From contig OX597822.1 in NCBI GenBank assembly GCA_951406725.2, positions 76,446,001-76,510,000 on the forward strand: a stretch of DNA of 64,000 nucleotides, written 5' to 3'. The notes under the pieces are model-generated. The model searched no databases. It was given only the letters and a program-made list of their open reading frames with translations, and was not told the DNA's origin. This stretch comes from Octopus vulgaris. Lineage: Eukaryota. Both the position numbers and the translations under genes were made by a program. Positions 2,861 to 40,417 of the stretch are shown piece by piece; the first letter of the stretch is position 1; every line of letters starts with the position of its first letter.

Positions 2861-3423
2861 ATGCTGATGATATACTCAATCGAATCCCCAGCAAGTTAAC
2901 ATGGGATCTTTTAACGACAGTGTAAACTTCATATAATGAGTATTTTGTGGTATATCTATTGTTTGGATGATTCACTCCGTCCAAGGTTCTACTAGCTATG
3001 AAATATATGTTGTCTGGATTTTAACTGACCCCACTACCTAATTTTTTAATGTTTATTTGCATGAGTGGCTGTGTGGTAAGTAGCTTGCTTACCAACCACA
3101 TTTAAGGGAAGACAGAGGGAAGGGAAGACAGAGGGAAGGGAAGACAGAGGGAAAAAATCGCCAATGATACACGTGCGGTCACATATTGAATCTTCTTTTA
3201 TATCTTCTACTTCTACGAATTACTTGAGGCTCACTAACTTCCTACACCTTGTTCTTTGGATCTTACCTTTGCACATATCTCTCTCTATATATATACATAT
3301 ATATATACATCATATATATATATGTATACATGCATACATATATGTATGTATACATGCATATATATATATATACATGCATATATATATATATATGTATACA
3401 TGCATACATATATATATATATGT

Positions 3424-3468
<45 letters not shown>

Positions 3469-3500
3469 TGTATACATGCATATATATACACACATGCATA

Positions 3501-3555
<55 letters not shown>

Positions 3556-3585
3556 ACATGCATACATATATATGTGTATACATGC

Positions 3586-3618
<33 letters not shown>

Positions 3619-3679
3619 GAAAAAAAAAAACATATATATATATATATATGTACATATACATATGTATACATACATATGT

Positions 3680-3909
3680 ACATATATATATATATATTAT
3701 GTCGTATGTAAACAAACATAAGTTTGCATTTGAAGCATTGAGATGTATTGTAGAACAAGTTGAAAGATATTTTTTTTTTCAATATGTAAATATTGAACTG
3801 TATATATAAAGGATAAAAACCTTTTTAAGGGTTCTTAAAAAGGATTTTGCCCTTTATATATATACTGTTCAACATTTACGTGTTGAAAAAATATATCTTT
3901 CTACTTGTT

Positions 3910-3910
<1 letters not shown>
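3680..3910. mobile_element. Fold-back element in (TA)n
   Basis: Inverted arms 3753-3829 / 3834-3910 with a 4-nt loop; left arm extends further; TA tracts on both sides. Confidence 0.6.
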
Positions 3911-3979
<69 letters not shown>

Positions 3980-3980
3980 A

Positions 3981-4395
3981 CGTGGTCTGATCAATACCTA
4001 TCCTGAGTGTTGCCATAGTAACAAAGCAAAAGCACGCAGAGAGAATCTACTTGGCACAGATTGATCATGAATTATGCTGTGCATGTGCACTGAGTTTTAA
4101 TGTTCTACCTCATTTTCACTGTTTACAGCAGTGCGTGGAAGGAAGGTGTGTAGCATGTGATCGTCACACTGACCATGAGAGAGAAAGCTGAGCAGATATT
4201 CTACATGAAATTTTGTCAAAAGCTACCCACTTTCCTTCCAAACATTGCTGCAAACAGCAGAAGTGAGCTAGAAAGTTAAAACTTAGTGTACATACACAGC
4301 AGAGTTCAAGGTCAATTTGTGTTAAACAGCTTCACTTTGCATGCTTTAGCTTCATTACTATGGCAACAGTCCGGATACTTATTGATCAGACCATG
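3981..4395 (+). mobile_element. Non-autonomous mariner derivative with long inverted ends
   Basis: TA-CGTGGTCTGATCAATA...TATTGATCAGACCATG termini, ~165-bp inverted arms, transposase start MREKAEQIFYMKFCQK. Confidence 0.75.
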
Positions 4396-4420
4396 TGTGT
4401 GTGTGTATATATATATATAT

Positions 4421-4850
<430 letters not shown>

Positions 4851-4866
4851 TATATATATATATATA

Positions 4867-5045
4867 AGGTGTTCAAAAAGTCTCTCCGCAGTGAACATTT
4901 TTCATCCTGTACATCACCACGGTGCTACTTCAAGAGTTTTTCAGTGAACAGATTATGTCGAAGGGACTTAAGCCACCAACTTCACCTGATTTAACACCAC
5001 CAGACTTTTTTTTTTCTGGGGAGCAAGTAAAGGATCAGTGTACAA
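4867..5045 (+). mobile_element. Tc1/mariner transposase remnant
   Basis: TA-AGGTGTTCAAAAAGT end; peptide LQEFFSEQIMSKGLKPPTSPDLTPPDFF matches the (W)PPxSPDLxPxDF motif. Confidence 0.7.
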
Positions 5046-5584
5046 GAATGGCCCAAAAAACCATTAAATACTTACTTCAGAGAGACCTTTTGAAAACCCT
5101 GTATTTTATTCTGTCCAAGTTAGTCCCTTTCTTCCTTAAATCTTGCCCATGGGTGCACAGGGTCTTCAATCAAGTTACTACTCACAACCTGTAACTTACC
5201 TGAAGATCCTGTTTATACACAGAGGCAAAAATTAAGTAATTTTTGTGCCTTGGCCAAAATAAGATTTTTGTTCCATCAATCAACAGTAAACAGAACACAC
5301 ACACACACTTACACACATGCACACTCACAAACACATGTGCGCATGAATGCACACATGGTTTCACGTTTGTTTCAATGCAATGTAAAAGACTGCATTAAGA
5401 AAGGAGGAGCCATCATCAACATCACCCTGTGGCTATTGTTGAAGGTCTCTCTCAGGGCTCTCAATGCCACAGGATCTGCTGATCTCATATCAGTCTCGTT
5501 AGCTATGTCTGATCCCATGAGAAATAATGTACTGGAGGTGTAGGAGGAGGAATGCCTTGAATCTGTTCCTCATGAGCGTTCTGT

Positions 5585-5818
5585 CTCAAGCTGTAGGACT
5601 TCGAAGGCTGGTTCCCTAGTTTCCATGGCATACAAGTGGTCGAGATCCACAACACACTCCCTGGATAGGATGTCGAACCATTGCTCCAGTCCTGTGGACT
5701 GGAGCAACATGAAATGAAGTGTGTTGCTTAAGAACACAATGTGCCACCAAGTCCAGGAATTGAAACCACGATCTTACAATCCTGAGTGCAACACCTTAAC
5801 CACCAGGCCACCTGCTTT
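5585..5818 (-). mobile_element. CORE-like tRNA SINE (variant tail)
   Basis: Reverse complement of TGGCCTGGTGGTTAAGG head, GTTTCAATTCC B box and CORE-like centre; tail similar to 18215-18445. Confidence 0.6.
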
Positions 5819-6039
5819 CACTTCCTCATGGCAAATTATTTATTTCTCATTTTGAACTTCATATACTTACTGTATTTGTGGACATAGACCTTCCCAACAA
5901 ACCATGTTTTACTTTGTGTGTGGTGGTGGTGGGAGGGTGATTTATTGATTCCCTTAACAACTATAAAATCTATCAGTCTCTTTCTGATTGACATTTTCAG
6001 TTCTTTCAAAGCTTTTCTCACTGTTCCATCATATAACTT

Positions 6040-7080
6040 ATTGTCTCTTTGTCTGTTTAGCTGTCTGTCTGTGTGTCTGACTGTCTCTCTCTCTTTCTGT
6101 CTACCTCCCTCTCACTCTCTCTTGCTCTCTCTCTCTCTCTGCTTCTTCTTAACGTTTTCTCTCTCTTTCTTTCACTCTCTCTCCTCCTTCCATTCACTCT
6201 GTCTTTCGACCACCTTCCATCCTTCCTACCCCTCCATCTCCACTTTATCCTTCTCCTTTCATCCATCCCGATTCTCCCACAGTTCACACTTCCTCCCACC
6301 TTCATCCACCCGTCTTCTACTTTCATCCACCCTTTTCCCCCACCACAGCTCTCCCACCCATGTCCATCACTATCTCATTTCTCTCTTTCTGGATGACTCT
6401 CTCTCTCCATTTTGTTACACACAATCTTAATAATTTTCTGATAAACCTAAAAGTAGATGTTGTAGTAGTAGTAGTAGTAGCAGTAGTAGTAGTAATAGTA
6501 GTAGTAGTAGTAGTAGTAGTAGTTGTTGTTTTTGTTGTTGTTATTGATTTTGTTATTGTAGTAAACGATGTGTCTTTTCATTGTCATTGAACGATAATTG
6601 CAGTTGTTGTTGTTGTGCTGATGGGGGCGGTAAAGGTGATAGTGAAAGTACTTGTTTTTGTTGTTGTTGTTGTTTTTCCTGTTGTTGCTCTTATTGTAGT
6701 TTAGTGTATAATAATGTGTCTTCTTATTATTGTCAGAAAATTATAATTCTTGTTACTGTTGTTGTTATGCTTATTGTTATTATTACTATTGTTTGTGTTG
6801 TTATTGTCTGGATGATAATTTGTCTTCTTAGAAACAATAATTGTTGTTGTTATTTTTCATGTTGTTTTTATTTTACGCTGTTATTGTTTGTTGTTTATCT
6901 TATTGTTTATATTGTTGCTATTGATTTTTGATGCTGTTACTGTTCTATGCTTGTTTGCTTGTTGTTTATCATCACAAACAATAGATGCTGCTGCTGCTGC
7001 TGTGGTTGTTGTTGTTGTCGCCGTCATCATTTGTTTGTGTTCTTGTAGTGATTGGGTAATGTGTCTTCTTTGCTGTTATG
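6040..7080. repeat. Low-complexity (CT)n, (GTA)n, (GTT)n tracts
   Basis: Degenerate simple repeats. Confidence 0.85.
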
Positions 7081-14715: not shown

Positions 14716-15946
14716 CTCTGTGTGTGTGTGTGTGAGTGAGATTGTAGTCATAGTGGGGTTGAGGGTTAATCAACTTCATTGCAATTACTTTTTGAACGGT
14801 ACTTTATTTTATTAACCCCAAAAGCATGAAAGACAGACTTGACAGGCACGATTTGAACTCAGAAGATAAAAAGCCATATCTAAATACCATGAGACAGTCT
14901 GCCGTGGTGGTGATGGTACAGAGGTTGTGATGTGGATGGTGGTGGTGGTGGTGGTTGTGATGTGGATGATAGTGGTGATGATGTGGATGATAGTGGTGAT
15001 GATGATGGTGGTGGTGGTGGTTATGGTGGAACAGCGGTTGTGATGTTGGTTATGTGGATGATGGTGGTTGTGGTGGTGATGGTGGTGATGGTGATGGTGC
15101 TGATGTAGTTGATGCTGCCGATTTTAGGGTGGTGGTGGTGGTGGTGGTGTTGATGACGATGCTGATGTTATTAGGCAGAAGAGATGGTGAGTGTAGAAGG
15201 TGGGTGAGGTGGGTTATGTTATGAGCTGATAGAAATTAGAAATACCATTTGTTTTATTCCAAATATCAGAAATTATGGAACAATTGATGTCAGCTCATTA
15301 GTGCCACCCTCACACAGACACTAATTTCTTCCTAATTTGAATAATGGTTTAGCATTGACGATTCTGATGTGTACAAGTTTAATTGTGTGGTTGTGTGTGT
15401 GTGTGTGTTTGTGTGTGTGTAGTTGTTGGTGTTTGTGTGTATATCCTTGAGTGTAATTGCTTGTATGTATAACTTTGTGAAAAGTGTGTATGTATGACTT
15501 AATGTTTGTAGCTGTATGTGTTTAACTTTGTTTATATGTATGTGTATGCGTGTGTTTGTGCATTTGGTAGGGTGATTGCATATTGTGTATACAGAGTGAT
15601 CGTATCAGAGGGTGTTTAGTTCACTGGTGTAGAATACTCAGCAGAAAATTGAGTACAGAGTCCAGTACAGAGCTCGTCTCCTTGTAGCGGCTATTGACCA
15701 ATCATTAATGGCAGTGCCCCAGCATGGCCACAGCTCTTGAGCTGCACCTAGTGAAAGAATAAAAGAATAGAAGTGAGAGTATACAAGTGTATTTATTTAT
15801 GTCTGTCTCTAAGCGTACAGATTTTTTTTCACAAGGTGGAGGAAATGATGTGCTGTCCAAAATGCTTTGGACACCATGGTTAGATGTATGTGTGTAAATA
15901 TATATGTACATGGTTAGATGTATGTATGTGTGAATATATATACATA

Positions 15947-16106
15947 GGCACAGGAGTGGCTGTGTGTTAAGAAGCTGGCTTCCCAACTACATAATCTCGG
16001 GTTCACTCCTACTGCGTGGCACCTTGGGCAAGTGTCTTCTACTATAGCCTTGGGCCAACCAAAGCTGTAGTGGGTGGATTTGGTAGATGGAAACTGAAAG
16101 AAGCTC

Positions 16107-16159
<53 letters not shown>

Positions 16160-16377
16160 TTGCATTTGTTGTTTGTGTGTTTGTGTTTGTCCCCTCCCCA
16201 TTACTTGACAACTGATGTTGGTATATTTACGTCCCTGTCACTTAACGATTCGGCAAAAAGAGACTGATAGAATAAGGCTTACAAAACAAATGTCCTGAGT
16301 TTGATTTATTTGACTAAAGGTGGTACTCCAGCATGGCCGCAGTCAAATGACTGAAACGAGTAAAAGAGTAAAAGAAT
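15947..16377 (+). mobile_element. SINE family A, full length
   Basis: GGCACAGGAGTGGCTGTGTG head with A/B-box-like motifs, internal (TA)n, tail CCAGCATGGCCGCAGTCAAATGACTGAAAC. Confidence 0.85.
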
Positions 16378-16492
16378 AATACACTGGGTTAATATAATAT
16401 TTGGGGTTTTGTTTTAAAGCATTTAAATGATAGCTGAGAGATCAATAACCTTTGGAGAGTTATTATTTCTAGTTTCATTCCCAAAATACATG

Positions 16493-16885
16493 GGTGTAGG
16501 CATGGCTGTGTAGTAAGAAGTTTGTGTCCCTGCCACATGGTTCTGGGTTCAAATCCACTGCCTGGCACCTTGGGTAAGTGTCTTCTACTATAGCCTCAGG
16601 CTGATGAAAGCCTTGAGAGTAGATTTGGTCAGTGGAAATTGAAGGAAGCTCATCATCTGTGAGTGTGTTTGTGTGTTTGTGTATGTGTCAGTGTTTCTCT
16701 CCCGCCACCATTTGGCAACCAGTGTTGGTGTGTTTATGCCCCCATAACTTAATGATGAAGCAAAGAGACTGATAGAACAAGTACCAGGCTTTGAAATGCA
16801 TACTGCAGTCCATTTGGTCAACTAAAATTCTTCAAGTTGGTGCCCCAGCATGGCCTCAGTCTAATGAACGAAACAAACAAAAGAG
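16493..16885 (+). mobile_element. SINE family A, full length
   Basis: Same head and tail as 15947-16377. Confidence 0.8.
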
Positions 16886-16959
16886 TAGATATATACCTAT
16901 GTATAAGGAATATCAGTCATACCATTTATTTATTTATTTAGTGTGTGTGTATGTGTTTA

Positions 16960-17495
16960 TCTCTTATATAAAATCTGTTCTGTCTCTGTCTTCTCGGATC
17001 TTGGGCATACTCCATCCGATTGCGCTCAAATTTGATATGTAGATACCGACGGTATCAGGGCGTGTATAAGTCTTGAAAAAATTACAAAAATCGATTCCAA
17101 GTGATAATGCAATTGATAAAGCCATTTTTGTCCTGCTTTTCTTCCGTCAACTTGTACATAACTGCACCTTCCATTTTTTGATGTTTTTGTACTGCTTAAT
17201 GGCACGTTTCTTTCCTGCCAAGCTTACTGTTTAAACCATGTTTGTGTTCTCCCAGTCAACAGCCTTATCACTACTGGTACTTCAAACTCTTCGGTTGCAT
17301 ATTTGTGTGAATAAATTCGTTTTTCTTTGGAATAGAAAAAAGTCTATCTTTATTTCTTCTTTTACTGTTGTGGCATCTCAAATTTAGGTTAAATCAGTGT
17401 TTCTCAAAGGGGAAGCCTATGGGATGGTCGGACAAGTTGTTTTGAGAAAATTTGGTTTAAATGTTTGACAACTCAGCACCGGCCATTGGACGGGT
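16960..17495 (+). mobile_element. Non-autonomous Helitron-like element (3' end degenerate)
   Basis: A|TCTCTTATATAAAA 5' end; subterminal hairpin-like ACCGGCCATTGGACGGGT; CTAG end not seen. Confidence 0.45.
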
Positions 17496-17624
17496 GGGGG
17501 AGGCGTTTTCCTCATTTATTTATATAGTGTTTATGGATGTGTTTATTTATTTATATAGTGTGTATGTATGTGTTTATTTATCACAGTTTGTGAAATATGA
17601 TAAACTATATATAAATCTTTTCTA

Positions 17625-17659
17625 TAATGTTTCTCTTTCTTTTCTATTTACAGGTGAGT
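17625..17659 (+). promoter_or_regulatory. Candidate recursive splice site (AG|GT ratchet point)
   Basis: GTTTCTCTTTCTTTTCTATTTACAG|GTGAGT: polypyrimidine acceptor fused to a consensus donor. Confidence 0.45.
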
Positions 17660-18214
17660 AAAAACTGTTTTTGAATCAGTGAATGTTGAAAAAGAATTGG
17701 TGTTCTTACTTGAACAGGTTTGCCGCTCAATTTTCTAAATTTACAACAATTTTCTGTGAAGTTTTATTTTGGGTTTCGATTTTCATGGGTATTTCTGGGC
17801 TGTCTTTATATGAATATGATCCGTTTTGGGGTTCTGTTCATTAAGCAAATTGCTCATTGCATGAGGAATTAAAATACATATGAATACGAGTATTCCATTC
17901 CAAGCTAATCCAAATTCCTCTTAAAAGCCTGAAATGATGTTTTATTTGCCCATCATCAACAGCAAATGCATAAATATCAACCCAGACTGAATTGCTCTTA
18001 AGTGTATGTGTATCTGTGGTGTGCTCAGCCACTTGCATGTTAATTTGATGAGCAGCCTGTTCCATTGATCGGATCAACTGCAGCCTTCATGAGTGCCAGT
18101 TCCATTCATAAACACTCTCTCGGTACTTAGATTCTTGTGTAGTCTACAAGTGGTTTGTTGTCCAAATTCCAGTTCTTGAAATAAATGGTAAAATAACTTT
18201 CTTAAGTCATACCG

Positions 18215-18445
18215 CTTCATGGGGGCTGGTTTCCAGGTTTCGTGGCATGTATACTCTCCACCTGGATGGGACATCACACCATCACAAGATTACTCACTTC
18301 TGCTAGCCAAGCAGACTGGAGCAATGTGAAATGTTATTTTTTTTTTTTTGCTCAAAAACACAACACATCGCCCAGTCCAGGAATTGAAACCACAGTCTTA
18401 TGATCATAAATCCAACACCCCTAACCATTAAGCTACGTGGCGCCA
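18215..18445 (-). mobile_element. CORE-like tRNA SINE
   Basis: Reverse complement of TAGCTTAATGGTTAGG head and CORE-like centre. Confidence 0.65.
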
Positions 18446-19315
18446 CCTGTAAGTAAATGAACTCGTAGTTACCTATATATGTTTGTAGTCTCTTCATGGT
18501 TCATGGATCAAATTTCAGCTAGTTATGAGAGTGAGAAAGGCAAGCCAATGGATTTGGTTAAAAAGAGATGATTAGCAATAGCTAGAAGAATATTGAGCAA
18601 CATCTCATGACCATTTGATCTAGCAAGCGGGGCCTCATTTCAGTGAGGGTGTGGCTGATACGCAATGATGCCATTGAGAAGTAGGCCCTGAAACAGCACG
18701 CATTCTCTCCTGATGACACCATACACTTGCTGGATTCTGGTATGTGGAGCCTTCGACTGGTAGCACTTGCATGTGCAAGTTATTTGCAAAACATATTCAG
18801 AAAAACCATTTGTTATTCAATTTGTTTGTTTAGAGAGCTGTTTGTATGGGGATGCTCCATTCGATATGGTGTTTGGACAGTCTTTGGTAACATACTGCAT
18901 ACAGTGACAGACTGGCCAGGTTACCAGCTTGCCCAATAGCAAGTGGACCCCTGCGCTATTTGAACCCATATATGGTGGGGGGGGGGTCCATATTAGTATC
19001 TAAAGAGCTCACCCCCTCAAGTTTGAGAATTTTTTAGTGACTCCTGGAAGAATGCATTAATTATTTCAGCCTGGCTCTGTTTGTAGTCAGTTGAAAAGAA
19101 TAGTTTTAACCAAAAAAAAAAAATAGTTAAATGATAACATTGTAGTTGTGGGTGGGCCCCTTTGTAGTTGCAGGTGGGCCCCCTTAGTCTCCTAGCAACC
19201 AATATTTTTAGACCCAGTCTACTATTGACTGCTTACATCTCATTGTGCAATGGAATATGGCCTTGGACTAAGCCAAACTATCTGATTAGATGAGATGTAT
19301 GTATGATTGTAAGCA

Positions 19316-19358
<43 letters not shown>

Positions 19359-19398
19359 GGTTGCCTTTGTGTGTGTACTGTGTATGTATGTGTGATAG

Positions 19399-19622
19399 TA
19401 TTCTTTTATTTGTTTAAGTCATTTTGACTGTGGCTATACTGGAGCACCACCTTTAGTTGAGCAAATCGACTCCAGGACTTATTCTTTGTAAGCCCAGTAC
19501 TTATTCCATTGGTCTCTTTTGCTGAACAGCTAAGTTATGGGGATGTAAACGCACCAGCATCAATTGTCAGGAGATGGTGGTGGGGGCGACAAACATAGAC
19601 ACAAACGCACATATACACATAC

Positions 19623-19653
<31 letters not shown>

Positions 19654-19818
19654 CACAACAGGCTTCTTTCAGTTTCTGTCTACCAAATCCACTCACAAGG
19701 CTTTGGTTGAACCGTGCCTATAGTAGAAGATACTTACCCAAGGTGCCAAGCAGTGGGACTGAATCCAGACCCATGTGGTTGGTAAGCAAGCTACTTACCA
19801 CACAGCCACTCCTGCACC
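19399..19818 (-). mobile_element. SINE family A, full length
   Basis: Reverse complement head and tail. Confidence 0.85.
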
Positions 19819-20165
19819 TATATACATATACATATGTTAGTTGCTCAGAGTGTCAAAGGCTTTGGTTGTCAAGTAATAATGACATGTACTGCTGGCCCAT
19901 AACGGTTGAATGGTTATGATATTGAACTACCTGCTGCTGATAGGTTCTAAGCTGAAATCTACTGCAGAGACTTCAGCTTGTCTCTGGACAGAACTCCTGA
20001 TTTAGCTAGCAAGATATCTGGATTAAGTAATAGATATCTTGGGAATATTACTAGAAATAGTACATCCTGTCCAAATAAAATTCATCTCTCATCTATCAGT
20101 ATAATATCTGTATAATGCTTATGAAACAAACACAACAAATTATATTCTAGTCCGGTGTATATATA

Positions 20166-20347
20166 GGCGTAGGAGTGGCTATGTGGTAAGTAGCTTGCTT
20201 ACGAACTACATGGTTCTGGGTTCAGTCCCACTGCGTTGCACCTTGGGCAAGTGACTTCTACTATAGCCTCGGGCCAACCAAAGCCTCGTGAGTGGATTTG
20301 GTAGATGGAAACTGAAAAAAGCCCGTCATGTATACATACATATATAC

Positions 20348-20397
<50 letters not shown>

Positions 20398-20613
20398 GTG
20401 TGTGTGTATATGTTTGTGTATCTGTGTTTGTCCACCAACATCGCTTGACAACCGATGCTAGTGTGTTTACGTCCCTGTAACTTAGTGGTTTGGCAAAAGA
20501 AACCAATAGAATAAGTACTAGGCTTAAAAAGAATAAGTCCTGGGATCGATTTGCTTGACTGAAAGGCAGTGCTCCAGCATGGCCACAGTCAAATGACTGA
20601 AGCGAGTAAAAGA
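20166..20613 (+). mobile_element. SINE family A, full length
   Basis: GGCGTAGGAGTGGCT head, internal (TG)n, conserved tail. Confidence 0.85.
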
Positions 20614-20769
20614 CTATATGTATGTATATTCGTATGCGTGCACACACACACACACACACAAAGACATCATAAATAAAAGCTTTTATTCTCACAATGATAT
20701 GGACGTATATAGAACTGTTTCTTTAACACACACACATACCCACAAATGTATGATACATACTAATACATA

Positions 20770-20960
20770 TTCTTTTACGTGTTTCAGCCATTTGACAGTG
20801 GCTATGCTGGAGCACCGCCTTTAGTCGAGCAAATTGACCCCAGGACTTTTTCATTGTAAGCCTAGGACTTAGTTTATTGGTCTCTTTTTTGCCGAACCGC
20901 TAAGTTACAAGGATGCAAATACACCAGCATCAGTTGACAAGGGATGTTGGTGGGGGGAGG
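20770..20960 (-). mobile_element. SINE family A tail
   Basis: Reverse complement of tail. Confidence 0.7.
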
Positions 20961-20964
20961 GTAT

Positions 20965-21157
20965 AATAATAATCCTTCCTACTGAATGCGCAAGGCCTTA
21001 AATTTGGGGGAACAGATTAAGTCGATTACATCGACCCCAGTATGCAACTAGTACTTATATAATCAACCCTGATAGGATGAAAGCAAAGTCGACCTCAGCA
21101 GAATTTGAACTCAGAACATAGTGACTGGCAAAATACCACTGAGCATTCTGCCAGCTC

Positions 21158-21158
<1 letters not shown>
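20965..21158 (-). mobile_element. SINE family C
   Basis: Reverse complement of the 8238-8458 type. Confidence 0.7.
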
Positions 21159-21202
<44 letters not shown>

Positions 21203-21665
21203 GTAATAATAATCACCATTTAACGTCTGCTTTTCATGCTGGCATGGGTTAGACGGCTTGACTGGAACTTGTAAGCCAGAAAGCTGCACTAAATTCCAGT
21301 CTAATATGACATAGTGTCTGTTGGACTATATATATATATATATATATATCTGTATAATTGTTATTATTTTTTATTATATATATGTATGTATGTATATATC
21401 AGTGCAAATGGAGTCACATCCATATGTTTAATTAATACACCGATACTAAGTGTTGCATTGAATGCAGAGACCATGCACAGGGCTTTTGGCAAGCATTTCT
21501 GAAAGTCCTGTGGCTTTCACTACAGGGTATACTTCCACCGAAAGCCTAAATATATACTTGTATTAAGCATATGGATACAACACTGTAAAGTTTGCTAAAT
21601 AAATATGGAAACATTTTGACGTATAGTTCAATCTCATTATCAACATGTATTCATGCAGACCTACA

Positions 21666-21900
21666 TTCTTTTATTCTTTTAATTGCTTCTGTCATTTGAC
21701 TGCGGCCATGCTGGAGCACTGCCTTTAGTCAAACAAATCGACCCCAGGACTTATTCTTTGTAAGCCTAGTACTTATTCTATCGGTTTCTTTTGTCGAACT
21801 AAGTTACGTGGACGTAAACACATCAGTGTCAGTTGTCAAGCGATGTTGGGGTGGGGCAGGAACAAACACACACACACACAAACATATACACATGCACACA
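21666..21900 (-). mobile_element. SINE family A tail
   Basis: Reverse complement of tail. Confidence 0.75.
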
Positions 21901-21901
21901 C

Positions 21902-21952
<51 letters not shown>

Positions 21953-21956
<4 letters not shown>

Positions 21957-22640
21957 AAAGGGTGGAATATAATTAATTTAATAAAATTAATCAATTTCAC
22001 CTAGTAGATTTATCGGTATGGAAAAGACCATATTTGGTAAGGGTTATAATAATTATAAATAAGGGTTAGATGCAACAAGTTGCTCAAAACCACATACCGA
22101 AAATATTAGAAATAGCAGCCAAAATTGGTCACCATTTCCTCAACTAGTAAAAAGTCTCCACAAACAAACAGAATTTGTAAGCTGTATATGGCAAAAAAGG
22201 CAGAAAATAACGAAATCCCAGCCTATGGATTAATTATAGACGACTCGTTTCTGGATTAGAACCGAAGGTTCATTTCCTTGTCAATATAATATTTCCTATA
22301 GATCTAGAAATGCTAGGGGAAAAACTCACCCGTTACACCAATACGATCAGCGACATCGGATGGTCTAACAGAACTGCTAGCATTCCTACACCTATACCAA
22401 CATGCGAATTCATATTTCCCTCAAAATTTACCACGTGAGCTACAAAAACGTTACCAATGAAACGAAAAATTCGTAGATAACTTGTAAGGGAGCAAAAGTA
22501 TTCAATATGCAATAAAGGGTGGAATATAATTAATTTAATAAAATTAATCAATTTCACCTAGTAGATTTATCGGTATGGAAAAGACCATAAGGGAAATATG
22601 AATTCGCATGTTGGTATAGGTGTAGGAATGCTGATCGTAT
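21953..22640 (-). mobile_element. Retrozyme/pLTR-like element: 557-bp unit + 80-bp terminal redundancy + inverted piece, in (TA)n
   Basis: Identical direct repeats 21953-22032 and 22510-22589; 22590-22632 is the reverse complement of 22379-22421; internal hammerhead. Confidence 0.75.
22233..22290 (-). ncRNA. Type I hammerhead ribozyme, U3-A8 core variant
   Basis: Minus strand ATTATA-TTGACAA-GGA..GAACC TTC GGTTC..TCC-A-GAAAC-GAGTC-GTC-TATAAT; 6-bp stem I. Confidence 0.7.
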
Positions 22641-23951
22641 ATATATATATATATATATATTCAAATGAAATATTTTGTTCAAGAACACAACACAATGACT
22701 GATCCAGGAAATGAAACCATGATCTTAAAATCAAGAGGGCAACATCCTAACCATTAGACCACTTTCCCTCACATGCATATGCATACACACACACATATTG
22801 CATAGCTATTTAGGCAACACATTCAAGGGTTACCCTCAGGAAAGATCAGTCGCTACAAACCCAATCATTGACCAACTTTCAGTCATAAAGCAATGACAAA
22901 ACTGAAAGAAAATAAAAGCTGGTGTTTCAGCATGACCACAATTCTATAAATGAAACTACTGAAAGAAAATCAAATAATAGAATGGGGGAAACTCTAATTA
23001 GCAATGGAGTGCAGCCTCAGCTTTTGGATAAATTCTACTCGAATAAACTGTAGCTTCTTTATTGAGTATCATTTGCCTCTCATTTGTAAATTCAAATACA
23101 CACACACACACAAACACAGATGCACGAGTGTGTCTTTGTGTGTTTAATGAGGTAGCAGGTGTTTGGTGAATTGGAAGCAAATTCTAAGTGATTTATTTTT
23201 AGAAATGCAGTTTTGAAATAATTTCATAAGGGAGTGGCCAGCCTCAGCATATTATTAAATGTGTTTGTGCCTGTGTGTGTGTGTGTGAATGAGAGTGTGT
23301 GTGTGTTTGTGAATGAGTGTGGAAATGGAATTGTAATGGATACAAAGAATAATTGGAAATAACGTTGAATTATATTTGACACTGAGGTCAAAAACAGACA
23401 GTTATCTGTAGGATTTAATGCAAAGGCCATGTTGGTGAAAGCATGCATTTATATGCATGTGTGTGTGTGCATGTAACATGGCAGTTCTGCCACTAGAATT
23501 TATGGATGCACGAACCAAAAACATGCTCACCAGGCAGTCTTGTAGTCTGTTGAGTCTTTGACTTACGGTATGGCCATAAAATTAAAGAACCCCTATAATT
23601 CTTTATTCCTTTTAATTTTTTTATTTTTTTTACTTATTCCAGCCACTGGACCACAGCCATGCTGGAGCATCAGCTTGATGAGTTTAGTCTAATGTATTGG
23701 TTCCAGGATTTAAATTTCAAGGCTGATAACCATTCTCTTGCTCTCTTTTTGTGGAAATTGTTAAGTTACAGGGATGTGAACAAATCAACACCAGTTGTCA
23801 AGCAATGGTGGGAACGTACACAAAGACACACACAGACGCTCATACACAGTATTCACATATATGTGTGTGTGTGTGTGCATGTGTGCATGTATATATATAC
23901 ACACATATGTACCTATATATATGTATATATATATATATATGTTCATATACA

Positions 23952-23981
<30 letters not shown>

Positions 23982-23988
<7 letters not shown>

Positions 23989-24286
23989 ATCACGTGACCG
24001 ACCAGACCATCAAATGTTGTTACACATCGCTGGTCACAATGCGTTCACATTGTTTTAGCCTTCGAATGACGCCACCCCGCTGTCTAAGCGAGCAGGCCAA
24101 CAGAAGAAAGAGTGGGAGAAAGTGTGGTGAAAGAGTACAGCAGGTATCACCACCCCCTGCCAGAGCCTCGTGGAGCTTTTTAGGTGTTTTCGCTCAATAA
24201 ACATTCACAACGCCTGATCTGGGAATCGAAACCGCGATCCTACGACCGCGAGTCCGCTGCCCTAACCACTGGGCCATTGCGCCTCC
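23982..24286 (-). mobile_element. OR1-like tRNA(Arg)-derived SINE, CpG-rich
   Basis: GGAGGCGCAATGGCCCAGTGGTTAGGGCAGCGGACTCGCGGTCGTAGGATCGCGGTTTCGATTCC: A and B boxes, TCG anticodon-like; flanked by (TA)n. Confidence 0.8.
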
Positions 24287-24433
24287 ACACACATATATAT
24301 ATATATATATATATACATGTATATATACGTATATATGTGTGTATATATATGTATGTATGTATATACATGTATGTATATACATATATATATATATATATGT
24401 ATATACATGTATATATACATATATATGTATGTG

Positions 24434-24517
<84 letters not shown>

Positions 24518-24562
24518 CATACATATATATGTATATATATTTACTATGTATATATACATACA

Positions 24563-24632
<70 letters not shown>

Positions 24633-24635
<3 letters not shown>

Positions 24636-24897
24636 AATCATTGGAAAAATCCATTTATTACACAGAGTCCTATAAATGTCATCAAATAATGGAAGATGTT
24701 TTGGATGGTAATATGGATTATATATTAAATCCAACCAGACAGCTGTTTCTGTCGTAAAAGACCATATTTCAGGTATACAATTGAAGAATATGCACTTCTT
24801 CAAAAGTAATACACATTATCATATTAAGTCAGTTGGAACTCATCAGTGGATAATAATTAAATTATTTAATATTTAAATTAGCACCTTTAGTTTTCTT
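24633..24897 (-). mobile_element. Hammerhead-bearing pLTR-like insertion in (TA)n
   Basis: ~265-bp non-microsatellite insert between TA tracts containing a hammerhead. Confidence 0.6.
24735..24849 (-). ncRNA. Type I hammerhead ribozyme with intact core and long stem II
   Basis: Minus strand CCA-CTGATGA-[GTT/GAC..TTGAAGAA/TTCTTCAA]-A-GAAAC-AGCT-GTC-TGG. Confidence 0.7.
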
Positions 24898-24974
24898 ATA
24901 TATATATATGTATATATGTATGTATGTATATATATGTATATAAATGTGTGTGTGTGTGTGTGTGTTTTGTTTTT

Positions 24975-25140
<166 letters not shown>

Positions 25141-25181
25141 TGTGTGTGTATATATATGTGTGTGTGCATATGTGTATATAT

Positions 25182-25570
25182 GCACAGGAGTGGCTGTGTG
25201 GCCGGTAGCTTGCTCACCAACCACATGGCTCTGGGTTCAGTCCCATTGCATGGCACCTTGGGCAAGTGTCTTCTACTATAGCATCAGGCCGACCAAAGCT
25301 TTGTGAGTGGATTTGGTAGACAGAAACTGAAAAGAAGCCCATCATATGTGTGTGTGTGTCTTTTTGTGTTTCTGTGTTTTGTCTCCCTATTATTCCTTGA
25401 CAACTAATGTTGGTATGTTTACATCCCCATAACTTAGCATTTCAGCAAAACAGATCAATACTGACCTTAAGAAGAATAAGTCCTGGGGTCAATTTCTTTG
25501 ACTAAAACCCTTTAAGGTGGTGCTCCAGCATGGCCACAGTCAAATGACTGAAACAAGTAATAGAAGAATA
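25182..25570 (+). mobile_element. SINE family A, full length
   Basis: Head and tail as in other copies. Confidence 0.85.
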
Positions 25571-25744
25571 TGTGTATTGAAAACTTTGCACCATTGGTTT
25601 CCTTTGTTTTCTGAATTTAAAATTAATATTTGTGATTGTTGCTTATAAATTTGTTCCTCACTTGACTCCATTCCTTCATAGTTTATTTCATGTTTGCTGA
25701 ATCTGTCTTGAATTTTGGCACACGTCTTGCTGTTCGTAATAATC

Positions 25745-26280
25745 TCATAACACACACACTCACAAACACAGATGCATGCACACAAACAAACATACACATA
25801 AATGCATGCACACTCACACATAATCACACACAAACACACACACAAACACACACAGTTTCATACACAAACACACACACACAAACGCACGAACACACACAAA
25901 CGCATGAACACACACAAATGCATGAACACACACAAACACGTGAACACACACAAACACACACGCACACACACAGACAAACACACAAACACACACAGACACA
26001 CATACACACACAAACACACACACAAACACACACGAATGCATGCACACACACAAACACACTCAGTTACATACACAAACACACACACACAAACGCACGAACA
26101 CACACAAATGCACGAACACACACAAACGCATGAACACACACAAACACGTGAACACACACAAACACACACAAACACACACAGACAAACACACAAACACACA
26201 CATACACACACACAAACACACGCACACAAACACATACACAAACCCACACACAAACACACTCTCTCACACACACACACATG
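25745..26280. repeat. CA-rich minisatellite (18-bp unit, ~208-bp higher-order duplication)
   Basis: ACACACACAAACGCATGA units; blocks starting at ~25853 and ~26061. Confidence 0.8.
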
Positions 26281-26931
26281 CATTGGTACTTCTAACCTTC
26301 AGTGTTTTCTTTATATTTTGGCATTTGGCATTGCAACAGAATCTCTTGATAACTTAACAGATGCTGCTGCCAGCAACGTAGCTCAACCAAATGAAGACAC
26401 CCCTGTCTTCAGTAATGTGTGAATCCTATTCAAAATAATAACAACTGTGGCATTAAATATTGGCAGAGGGCCACAACTTTTAACGTAGCCTGTAGTCAAT
26501 TATATTGACCCCAGCACATGACTGGTTGGGACTTATGTTATTCGTTCAAGATGAGTGAAAATCAAAGCAGACCTTTGTAAATGAAATTTGGAAACAGCTT
26601 GTAAAGAAGATGTAACTTTATATTGATTTTGAAGTTATTGGCCCATGGCCAGCAATTTTGTGGGAGGGGTTAGATTGATAACATTGACCCCAGTACTCAA
26701 CTGGTACTTGTTTTGTCGATGCTGAAAGGATGAAAGACAAAGTCAACCTTGGTGAAATTTGAACTCAGAACAACTCAGCCAGAAAAACGCAGGTGTGGCT
26801 GTGTGGGAAGAAGTTTGCTCCTTAACCATATGGTTCCAGGTTCAGTCCTACTGCATGGCACTCAGGGCTGAAACAAGTAAATGAAATAACTATATATATC
26901 ATCATCATCATCATATCTATGTATATGTATG

Positions 26932-26962
<31 letters not shown>

Positions 26963-26966
<4 letters not shown>

Positions 26967-27638
26967 TCATCATCGTTTAACGTCCGCTTTCCATGGACGA
27001 TTTTGACCGAGGGCTGGTGAACCAGATTGTTGCACCAGCCTCCAATCTTGATTTGGCAGAGTTTCTACAGCTGGATGCCCTTCCTAACACCAACCACTCT
27101 GAGAGTGTAGTGGGTGCATTTTACGTGCCACCAGTACAGGGGCCAGTCAGGCGGTACTGGCAACGACCTCGCTTGAATGGTTTTACACATGCCACCAGCA
27201 CAGGTGCCAGTAAGGCGACATTGGTAATGATCACACTCGAATGGTGCCCTTTTTACGTGCCACTGGCATGGAAGCCAGTTGGCTGCTCTGGCAATGATCA
27301 CACTCGGATGGTGCTCTTGGCACCCTACTAGCACGGGCACAAGTGCCAGTAAGGCGATGCTGGTAATGATCACGCTCGAATGGTACCCTTTAAGTGCCAC
27401 TGACACGGAAGCCGGTTAGCCACTCTGTCAATGATCACGCTCGTATGGTGCTCTTTGCACCTTGCTAGCATGGACGCCAGTCATCGAATTTGATTTAGAT
27501 TTTGCTTTTGATTGATTTGATTTCATTTGCCTCAACAGGTCTTCGCAAGCAGAGTTTTAGTGACCAAAGAAGGAAAAGGTTACAAGGTTACGTACAAGTG
27601 GGCTGGTTACGACCCTGGCATAGGCCATAAGATTATGG

Positions 27639-37762: not shown

Positions 37763-40417
37763 TTTGCTTGTTTTACTTAATAGACTGTGGTCATGCTGGG
37801 GCATAATTGACTATATTCACCCCGCTGCCAAATTTCAGGCTTTCTGCCAATGCCAAACCAAGAAATCAATAATTACCATTTTCTTGATTGAACACTAAAT
37901 GACAAAATGGTTTATCAATGTATTTACTTAATTCCACGGAGATTCTTTAATAACGACTTTATTTCTATAGATGCTCCAAATCTTTCTCGACCAAATTAGT
38001 TTTGATCTACACAGTCACGATTTTTGTCATATACATATAGATAGACATATATATTTCTTTTTATATAGAGTGTGTGTAAGATATTTGAGGACAGATTTAT
38101 GTTTATATAAAAAACAGATATATAATAACAGGTAATAACTTTATAAAAAATGCTATGAGGATAAAAATAAACCTTCTTTTCTATAATGTGATTCAATAAA
38201 TCCACCTTCAGCTTCAGCAACTGCTTCTGTATGAGATCTAAATCATCTACAGCATGGCCGCAGTCCAATGATTGAAACAAGTAACAGATAAAAGACAATT
38301 TATAATTTTAATAGGAGCTCTTTATACCTGGCAGTTTTGTGTCAAAGAGCCAGGTGTAATCTCAGGTGGAGTGGAATGAAAACGATTAATAAATGTTCAT
38401 ATATAAAGTGCTTAATTATGATGAAAATGGAAATATGAGTGTTAGCCTAATTGAGTTGTAAGATCATCATCAAAGTCTTCATCTTCTGGTAACATCTTGT
38501 GGACTTGTCAAATTCTATTTGACATATGGCCTGGAATTGCAAGTGTGAGATGTGAAGTAAGACGGAGTAGCTCAACTGGAAGTTGAACCTGTACCACCAG
38601 AAATTCAGCTGACTAAAAACTTATAAACCACTCCACAACACTTCCACAGACTAAGTGAGGGAACGTCTATGTGGTTTGACCTGTTAGAAATAACAACCAA
38701 ATCTACCTAAAACGCAAGCAACATTTTACCTTCTTTAAAAATATAAAAGGATACATTGAACAATGTCATTTTAGATAATTTTTTTCTAAAACTAGATCAA
38801 ATGGTCATGGCTGGAAGGCCTTTGATTAGAGGTCTGTTGAATTAAAATTAACTTGGAGTTACAAGTTTATTAGCACATTGGGTAACCTACAGATGATTAT
38901 CAATTTAATTTTCATTTCCTTTTCATTTAACGACCACTTTTCTATGCTAGCATGCGTCAGACGAAATTTGTTGAGGCCGATTCTGTTTCTGTGACCAGAT
39001 GTCCTTCCAATTGCCAACCCTCACCTACTTCCAAACAAGGTAATATTTTCCCCATAGTCAGACATTTCTTTCACAGAAGACAGGAGCTGAACAACTTTGC
39101 TTGTTTGATGAAGATGCTGCTCATATGCAACCATTACTGAATGTTTAGACAAATGTACACATAAACACACACACATCTTATACACATGCACACACACACT
39201 CACTCACAACCACACACACACATCTATACACATGCACATATACACACAACCACGCACACACATCTTATGCATGTGTACACTCACAATGCATCTATACACA
39301 CACACATATTTACGCACAAGCATGCACAGACACACACATACACACATGCATATATATATATACACACACATACACACCCTATACACATTCACACACACAC
39401 ACCTAATAAACATGCTCATATGTATATATACACATGCACACACACCATATGCATACACAACCACGCACCCACACATGCATACACACACACTCACATAGAA
39501 CTCGTTCCAAAACCTCTATCAGAAGAGACAATGAAAAACACCACCCCAACCGTCCTCCTCTTCCTCCCCCTCCCCCCGTCCTCCTCTCCGTGCACCCATC
39601 CTCGTAGCTTTACATTAGACATTTATCCAAGATATTGTCAGATTTGCTCCATGGATTCTGAATGATGCAAAAACTAAAGACATTTTCAGGGTGGGGTTAG
39701 GGAGGAAGGAGAGGAAAGAGAAAGGAGGCGGCGGTGGGGTGGGGTGAGGAGTAGGGGTTTCTGTTTACTGTGACTGAGATTCATGGAATTTTACGAGGGT
39801 GTATTGTGGGGAGTAAGAGATTTTGGTGATGGGGGGGGGGGGGGAAGCAGGAGGCAGACGGAGAGGCTGGCGTATTGCGAACACGACGAGGCTGGTGGGA
39901 TTCTAGCAAGGATCTTGTAGGGTGCGGAATTGTATGTGTGTAAGAATGGGAGAGCAGCGATCATGTGAAGATTGTAGCCATAATTGAATGAAAATAATCT
40001 AGCTAGCCATCTATCTATCAATCCATCCACATACCTATTCATCTCTCTATCTATCTCTCTGCCTATCTATCTATCTACCTATCTATCTATTTCTATATAC
40101 ATATATAATGTATGCCTCTCTCTCTCTCTCTATATATATATGTATATATATATATATATATATATACAAACACACACATACATATATGTATATATATATA
40201 ATATATCTGAAGACTAGTGTTATTGAAATTACAAAGATATAATCTAATAAATGTGAAAATCACACTTGTCATCTTTGATGGAATGTTTGGCCAGATTTGG
40301 TTGAAGTTTCCTTATTATTTATAGCATGAAGATGAAGAAAATTCTATGAGCATAAACAACTCATCGATATATACATAAATATATGTATTTATATATGTAT
40401 GTGTATATGTATGTATG

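Follow-up and report, generated by a model that had tools for sequence, protein, structure and literature searches.

Positions 21953–22640 of the analysed window (64,000 nucleotides of Octopus vulgaris contig OX597822.1, forward-strand positions 76,446,001 to 76,510,000) probably hold a non-autonomous, non-LTR retrozyme-type element, 1.14 units long, that a Penelope-like reverse transcriptase (RT)-endonuclease would have copied from an RNA longer than one unit and inserted at a (TA)n repeat. On the minus strand, the order is an inverted piece, the terminal 80 nt of one unit, a complete unit, and (TA)n.

Anatomy of the insertion

One full 557-bp unit occupies 21953–22509 on the minus strand. 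Its extent is given by the repeat spacing and by a junction found throughout the family, and its orientation by a hammerhead motif present on the minus strand only. We infer that the RNA sense of the unit is the minus strand, with the 3′ end, where reverse transcription starts, at 21953. The two direct repeats, copy 1 at 21953–22032 and copy 2 at 22510–22589 (both minus strand), are identical over exactly 80 bp, spaced by 557 bp, and bounded by mismatches immediately outside; sequence comparison thus confirms to the base what an earlier note on this DNA had claimed. Copy 2 represents the final 80 nt of a preceding unit, 5′-truncated at 22589, and forms a partial tandem (pseudo-LTR, pLTR). An AU-rich hairpin is predicted at approximately 21961–22001 in copy 1, just inside the 3′ end of the unit.

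Next to copy 2 lies a 43-bp inverted piece (22590–22632, plus strand), which is the exact reverse complement of 22379–22421. It is followed by an 11-bp jump piece, GCTGATCGTAT (22630–22640, plus strand), the reverse complement of 22341–22351. The complement of GCTGATCGTAT occurs only once in the 64-kb window, 27 nt beyond the source of the 43-bp piece. The jump between the two pieces skips 27 nt at a GCT common to both sides, and the terminal TAT of the jump piece is common to the target repeat. The exact inverted piece, the GCT jump and the (TA)n, all noticed earlier, are therefore present, and the (TA)n lies on both sides: as read from the sequence, the left half of the target (21914–21952) prolongs a (CA/TA) microsatellite, and the right half is located at 22641–22660. 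The inner junction (22575–22605) is blunt as read, the unit running on TTTGGTAAGGG past 22032; it can alternatively be read as an AGGG microhomology join with a loss of 7 nt. A SINE-like repeat is present around the element in four diverged copies (19400–19650, 20768–20985, 21672–21884 and 23625–23846), and the insertion point is the microsatellite tail of the copy at 21672–21884. Neither a second copy of the 557-bp unit nor an array was found within the 64-kb window.

The partial tandem, the 5′ inverted piece and the microsatellite target are insertion marks of the Penelope type. The inversion is atypical, since it starts at an internal site and not at the 3′ end of the element as in the usual inverted 5′-truncated copy. 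This copy has no tail, a tail of 30–40 bp being optional in the Penelope type. The identity of the repeats had been taken to imply a recent event; the identity stands, but recency is only loosely bounded, since 0 differences over 123 duplicated bases permit a pairwise divergence of up to 2.4% at 95%.

A non-coding unit closed head to tail

The unit has a GC content of 34% and contains no RT or GIY-YIG ORF. In agreement with the claim that it has no credible ORF, ATG-started frames of the circularised unit do not exceed 26 aa on the minus strand and 42 aa on the plus strand, and none of the 8 stop-free frames submitted to Pfam, among 22 listed, showed a match. A 74-aa open frame on the minus strand had no relative among longer proteins, which is weak evidence. 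The RNA fold has a z-score of −4.0 for the linear form and −3.2 for the circular form, with 63% of the circle paired and 0 of 40 shuffles equally stable. Two segments containing CGGTATG on opposite strands (22010–22027 and 22090–22104) pair in the predicted fold, and the minus-strand segment is also similar to a 5′ splice site (GTATGT; compare intron-bearing pLTRs).

The 557-bp stretch is found, whole or partial, in 20 of 24 listed runs, which come from 8 studies and carry three organism labels. We compared the unit (21953–22509) with the contigs of four runs, X1 and X4 (DNA) and X7 and X17 (RNA by guess, no run containing the stretch being recorded as RNA), and obtained 885, 867, 23 and 98 matching contigs, respectively. 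Since 885 and 867 contigs match in the two DNA runs, the unit belongs to a high-copy, variable family.

A head-to-tail joint, at which 22509 is followed by 21953 (going back 557), was observed in all four runs compared, under two organism labels and in two allelic forms, as the longer-than-unit, head-to-tail template proposed in the earlier note would require. The junction depth was 613 + 658 against 1382 at 22504–22509 in X1 (ratio 0.92), 834 + 508 + 47 against 2402 in X4 (0.58), 98 against 123 in X7 (0.80), and 112 against 93 in X17 (1.2). At the far end of the unit, the majority of the depth continues through the junction and not into an ORF; attachment to a coding Penelope ORF as an ordinary pLTR, which the earlier note had set against its own reading, was not seen. 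One X7 contig spans the junction with 177 + 170 nt, exceeding the 80 nt of this copy. Since the junction recurs in four of four runs, it is a property of the family, with no ORF between units. No locus with two complete hammerheads was seen in the four runs, where contigs are short and no listed piece covers the whole unit.

Another X7 observation concerns a contig with colinear matching blocks up to 22123, at 22268–22317 and from 22482, whose loose end after 22507 resembles a diverged unit start. This contig is probably from a second, diverged family with an identical head-to-tail layout.

The recurrent junction bears on whether the copy is ordinary debris of an autonomous Penelope-like element, that is, a 5′-truncated pLTR with the usual pLTR hammerhead, the 557-bp unit being a rare deletion product outside any retrozyme cycle. 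A partial tandem, a 5′ inversion and (TA)n are the standard layout of autonomous elements, and the DNA depth falls at ~22330, so that many copies share only the 3′ 380 bp. However, the presence of the junction in all runs, labels and allelic forms mentioned above, together with the diverged colinear relative in X7, makes such debris improbable, and the absence of a coding remnant (no Pfam match in 8 frames and, weakly, no relative of the 74-aa frame) points the same way. Identity with an autonomous EN+ Penelope-like element is itself ruled out, since the unit has no ORF and the junction closes it on itself. There may well be an autonomous relative with the 3′ part in common; the 557-bp unit nonetheless multiplies without an ORF.

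The copy differs from all covering contigs at 22361, 22399 and 22458. These private differences are all CpG-type transitions, which suggests a methylated source locus or a different lineage. At 22399, an A is found in both the main copy and the inverted piece, and a G in all family contigs compared. None of the four runs compared showed the junction peculiar to this copy (22589/22590) or its private alleles, as would be seen if the 80-bp repeat and the inversion were mis-joins made by the assembly in a microsatellite-flanked repeat. We consider such an artefact very improbable, since the head-to-tail junction is present in independent runs, the CpG-type transitions are expected of genuine decay in a source locus or lineage, the 64-kb window contains no N bases, and the locus may simply be missing from the sampled individuals.

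A variant type I hammerhead

A type I hammerhead variant is located at 22223–22301 on the minus strand, based on a relaxed descriptor, the predicted fold, and the same sequence in family contigs. Stem I comprises 6 bp (22290–22285 with 22238–22233) and an outer extension to 22301 and 22223. The core UUGACAA (22284–22278), for which CUGANGA is canonical, is followed by a long stem II (22277–22253), an extra A (22252), and GAAA (22251–22248). Stem III (22248–22240) is near-palindromic (ACGA-G-UCGU), and the GUC cleavage site is predicted between 22239 and 22238. GGA-AAU opens and UAA-UCC closes stem I as well as stem II, which places the same 3 × 3 internal loop twice within 22223–22301 of the minus strand. 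The duplicated loop could bind a protein, make a tertiary contact, or permit swapped pairing between stems I and II.

The unit had been said to contain a single hammerhead, and one motif was found, at 22290–22233 on the minus strand only. With a 6-bp stem I, the relaxed descriptor had this motif as its sole match in the whole window. Of 3000 dinucleotide shuffles of the unit, 1 matched with a 5-bp stem I and 2 with a 6-bp stem I, figures that are somewhat flattering since the descriptor was composed after the motif was seen. Rfam yielded no match at the gathering score, and no hammerhead family was found among the 14 matches at E ≤ 10. Exact 21–22-nt motifs of the element had no matches in viral contigs and none in metagenome contigs. 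Six metagenome loci retrieved with a degenerate hammerhead pattern were dismissed as chance, with a stem I of 0–2 bp and one 21-nt BLAST match inside the pattern itself.

One X7 contig matches 22151–22300 with 0 differences, and X17 shows 1 difference. In 40 of the 49 rows of variants tabulated for the family, none falls in the core; the listed variants concern the loop of stem III (22244), the first pair of stem I, which becomes G-U (22285), and the distal part of stem II (22268). Since the listed variants spare the core and the X7 contig is exact, the U3-A8 pair and the extra A are family traits and not decay of this copy. U3-A8 cores, a swap of C3-G8, occur in Penelope-like elements of Schistosoma (Cercyon family; PMC4209133), and U3-A8 hammerheads are reported to be active in vitro (PMC3088659).

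The hammerhead conformer has a predicted energy of −13.0 kcal/mol, compared with −15.9 kcal/mol for a fold that pairs up the core, and a stem III self-duplex between two copies is predicted at −11.0 kcal/mol. Since the conformer lies 2.9 kcal/mol above the core-sequestering fold and stem III can pair with itself, the putative ribozyme is likely to act in a dimer-dependent or protein-assisted mode.

Depth polarity and candidate transcription

In the two DNA runs, summed contig depth at the 21953 end exceeds that at the 22509 end by factors of 92 and 73; this measure is raised by overlapping contigs and by motifs common to other repeats and does not equal copy number. The left/right ratio in the runs guessed to be RNA is 1.0 (X7) and 9.1 (X17). 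Among the matches listed, another locus (X17) ends at 21954 adjoining (TA)n. The 3′-to-5′ polarity and the end at 21954 suggest that copying starts at a fixed internal site and that copies are truncated at the 5′ end, as is the case for Penelope-like elements. The random circular permutations expected in the earlier note are therefore probably wrong. A fixed start is compatible with a circle, and the permutation pattern is thus not decisive for or against it.

The DNA depth drops at ~22330, just upstream of the hammerhead, from 15,000–27,000 to 3,000–7,000. The excess over 21953–22330 leaves room for many copies, perhaps including a coding helper, that have only the 3′ 380 bp in common. A local depth peak at 22105–22123 overlaps the motif AGAAATAGCAGCCAAA (22104–22123), which is common to a different dispersed repeat at 38682 (plus) and 29498 (minus) in the window. 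Since the motif belongs also to this other repeat, which accounts for the peak and for the loose ends at 22089–22124, we rejected the peak as a sign of special conservation in the family.

The polarity is also relevant to an origin at the DNA level, in which a hammerhead satellite expands by unequal exchange and this copy results from template-switching repair (a fold-back of 43 + 11 bp), no RNA being involved. The A at 22399 common to both pieces would also be expected from copying of a nascent DNA strand, a jump at GCT is typical of microhomology switching, and bioRxiv 10.64898/2026.07.22.740005 proposes that pLTRs amplify locally in tandem. On the other hand, the strong 3′-to-5′ polarity on the hammerhead strand fits target-primed reverse transcription, as do the dispersed position of this single copy within (TA)n, where the 64-kb window contains no array, and the end of another locus at the same place adjoining (TA)n. 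An origin without RNA thus appears quite unlikely. A hybrid, with an RNA-templated main piece and a DNA-templated inversion, is possible.

The contigs of X7 and X17 cover the unit and cross both the junction and the cleavage site, contigs being blind to strand and circularity. X7 is unlike genomic DNA, since its left/right depth is flat (1.0 versus 92 and 73). The flat X7 profile suggests transcription of the entire unit, through both junction and cleavage site, which is compatible with a circle and a multimer alike. In X7, the hammerhead region has a depth of 175 versus 91 for the junction contig, and this approximately twofold imbalance counts against a pure circle. The DNA runs show no sharp depth step at the cleavage site, a weak indication that cleaved linear monomers are not the apparent main template.

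Relation to retrozymes and Penelope-like elements

Non-LTR retrozymes of metazoans have been described by Cervera & de la Pena 2020 (PMC7229834) and Li, Clavereau & Pollet 2026 (bioRxiv 10.64898/2026.07.22.740005). The affinity to retrozymes suggested earlier is borne out by a non-coding, head-to-tail unit with a predicted type I hammerhead, and membership of this class is likely. The element and the non-LTR retrozymes are alike non-coding, below 45% GC, self-paired, arranged head to tail, equipped with one type I hammerhead, and high in copy number. A Penelope-like helper is likewise proposed for the latter, whose mollusc example is a mussel element of 350–390 bp. The unit size of 557 nt is outside the 170–400 nt given in PMC7229834 and within the 51–972 bp given in bioRxiv 10.64898/2026.07.22.740005. 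Unlike the non-LTR retrozymes, the element has a U3-A8 core and long stems, which the CUGANGA descriptor misses, and it is a dispersed 1.14-mer with Penelope-type marks, not an array.

According to Li et al. (bioRxiv 10.64898/2026.07.22.740005), an "active" locus has at least two complete hammerhead-bearing units, 8 of 9 predicted Xenopus retrozyme dimers gave no cleavage in vitro, and retrozymes are argued to derive from Penelope-like elements. The mobility of animal retrozymes is treated as proposed and undemonstrated in PMC7229834 and bioRxiv 10.64898/2026.07.22.740005, and the idea of a circular template is already published (PMC4209133, discussion; PMC7229834).

A partial tandem with a 5′ inversion is a described layout of Penelope-like elements (PMC8557442). 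For the Penelope-like RT, internal initiation in the RNA has been shown in vitro, and the enzyme cuts both strands of AT-rich DNA (PMC11167929). The anole Penelope-like element is described as inserting from unprocessed RNA, with cleavage not needed (PMC11167929). The element resembles the EN+ Penelope-like elements, in particular the Hydra clade, in its pseudo-LTR, 5′ inverted piece and (TA)n (Craig et al. 2021, PMC8557442; Cervera & de la Pena 2014, PMC4209133). It is unlike them in that the 557-bp element has no RT/GIY-YIG ORF and its inversion comes from an internal site.

The Hydra clade, which includes an octopus member, shows a preference for (TA)n (PMC8557442), and its hammerheads commonly have a stem III of the form ACNN-n-NNGT and unpaired bases before GAA (PMC8557442 File S1/S2). 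The hammerhead of the element shares the palindromic stem III with Hydra-clade and pLTR hammerheads, and U3-A8 with Cercyon. Unlike in the Hydra-clade hammerheads, the unpaired base occurs only on the 3′ side of stem II, and the distance from the hammerhead to the 3′ end is 285 nt in the element versus roughly 40 nt in the Hydra-1_Obim consensus. On account of the (TA)n target, the shape of stem III and the octopus member, elements of the Hydra clade may be regarded as candidate helpers. A motif search of the octopus Naiad and Hydra consensus sequences in the PMC8557442 set with motifs of the element gave no relevant match, and Hydra-1_Obim gave none by eye or motif search. Naiad, considered as a source, has the same (TA)n target and is reported without canonical hammerheads. 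For Octopus vulgaris itself, recent activity of Penelope-like families has been reported (PMC13282606).

Non-autonomous Penelope-like elements are known from algae (PMC9977147). Like the element, MRC1 and Chlamys-N are described as ORF-less, with pLTRs, a head-to-tail arrangement and microsatellite targets, and are often 5′-truncated (PMC8557442, PMC9977147). They differ in coming from green algae, in having (C)n or (CA)n targets, and in belonging to a clade described as mostly without canonical hammerheads.

Proposed course of the insertion

The insertion can be arranged into a tentative series of steps. Minus-strand transcription of a source locus would run through the junction between units, as the two runs guessed to be RNA suggest. 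The hammerhead, probably dimeric via its palindromic stem III, may release monomers, which would be ligated into circles. The borrowed enzyme would then nick (TA)n and prime cDNA synthesis at a fixed site internal to the RNA, 285 nt 3′ of the cleavage site. The main cDNA, whose product is observed, would have reached 637 nt, crossing an intact cleavage site and passing its own start by 80 nt. The other target strand may have primed a second cDNA at a UAU microhomology (22341), in a manner resembling twin priming; this cDNA would have slipped 27 nt at GCT and added 43 nt before the two cDNAs were joined.

In L1 twin priming, the second target strand primes at an internal RNA site by short complementarity, which results in an inverted 5′ segment. 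The second piece of the present copy is most simply explained as cDNA primed from the other target strand, and an inverted 5′ segment from internal priming is likewise proposed here. Unlike in L1 twin priming, the element has no poly(A) tail and no discernible target-site duplication in (TA)n, and its inverted segment duplicates sequence already contained in the main piece.

Since the cDNA crosses the cleavage site and its own start, a cleaved linear monomer is insufficient as the template without an end-to-end jump. Given the copying of a longer-than-unit RNA, we lean slightly towards an uncleaved multimer or an end-to-end jump as the source of the extra length, and give a covalently closed circle somewhat less than an even chance. 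An uncleaved multimer explains the DNA equally well as a circle, and the circle is plausible. The A at 22399 in both pieces means that they derive from one source sequence and that the change is older than the insertion. This sharing fits equally a circle, a second piece copied from the first cDNA, a tandem source still young and homogeneous, or a lineage whose common allele is A. Release of a monomer would be impossible from this copy, which has only one hammerhead.

A bolder proposal, which we hold to be rather unlikely, is that cephalopods contain an overlooked retrozyme group, missed by CUGANGA descriptors and Rfam on account of its U3-A8 core, whose 557-nt circular RNA is copied directly by a Penelope-like enzyme, both target strands priming on one circle. 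If this is true, the same circle read for 1.14 turns and then partially re-read would amount to direct evidence, at the level of the genome, that pseudo-LTRs form on circular templates.

Implications

The element stands out for a ribozyme core that is seldom met and an insertion footprint that is exceptionally easy to read; both its class and the circle hypothesis have been published before. The literature searches made returned no account of a retrozyme from a cephalopod, and the element may already be catalogued as Penelope-like or unknown in the 2026 Octopus vulgaris repeat library. With thousands of likely copies and a short unit, the family offers a cheap test of circles versus tandem transcripts as the longer-than-unit source. 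U3-A8 hammerheads escape Rfam, and counts of retrozymes may therefore be underestimates. The combination of a retrozyme-type unit and clear Penelope-type marks in one short, dispersed copy argues for mobilisation by Penelope-like enzymes and against a purely local satellite expansion.
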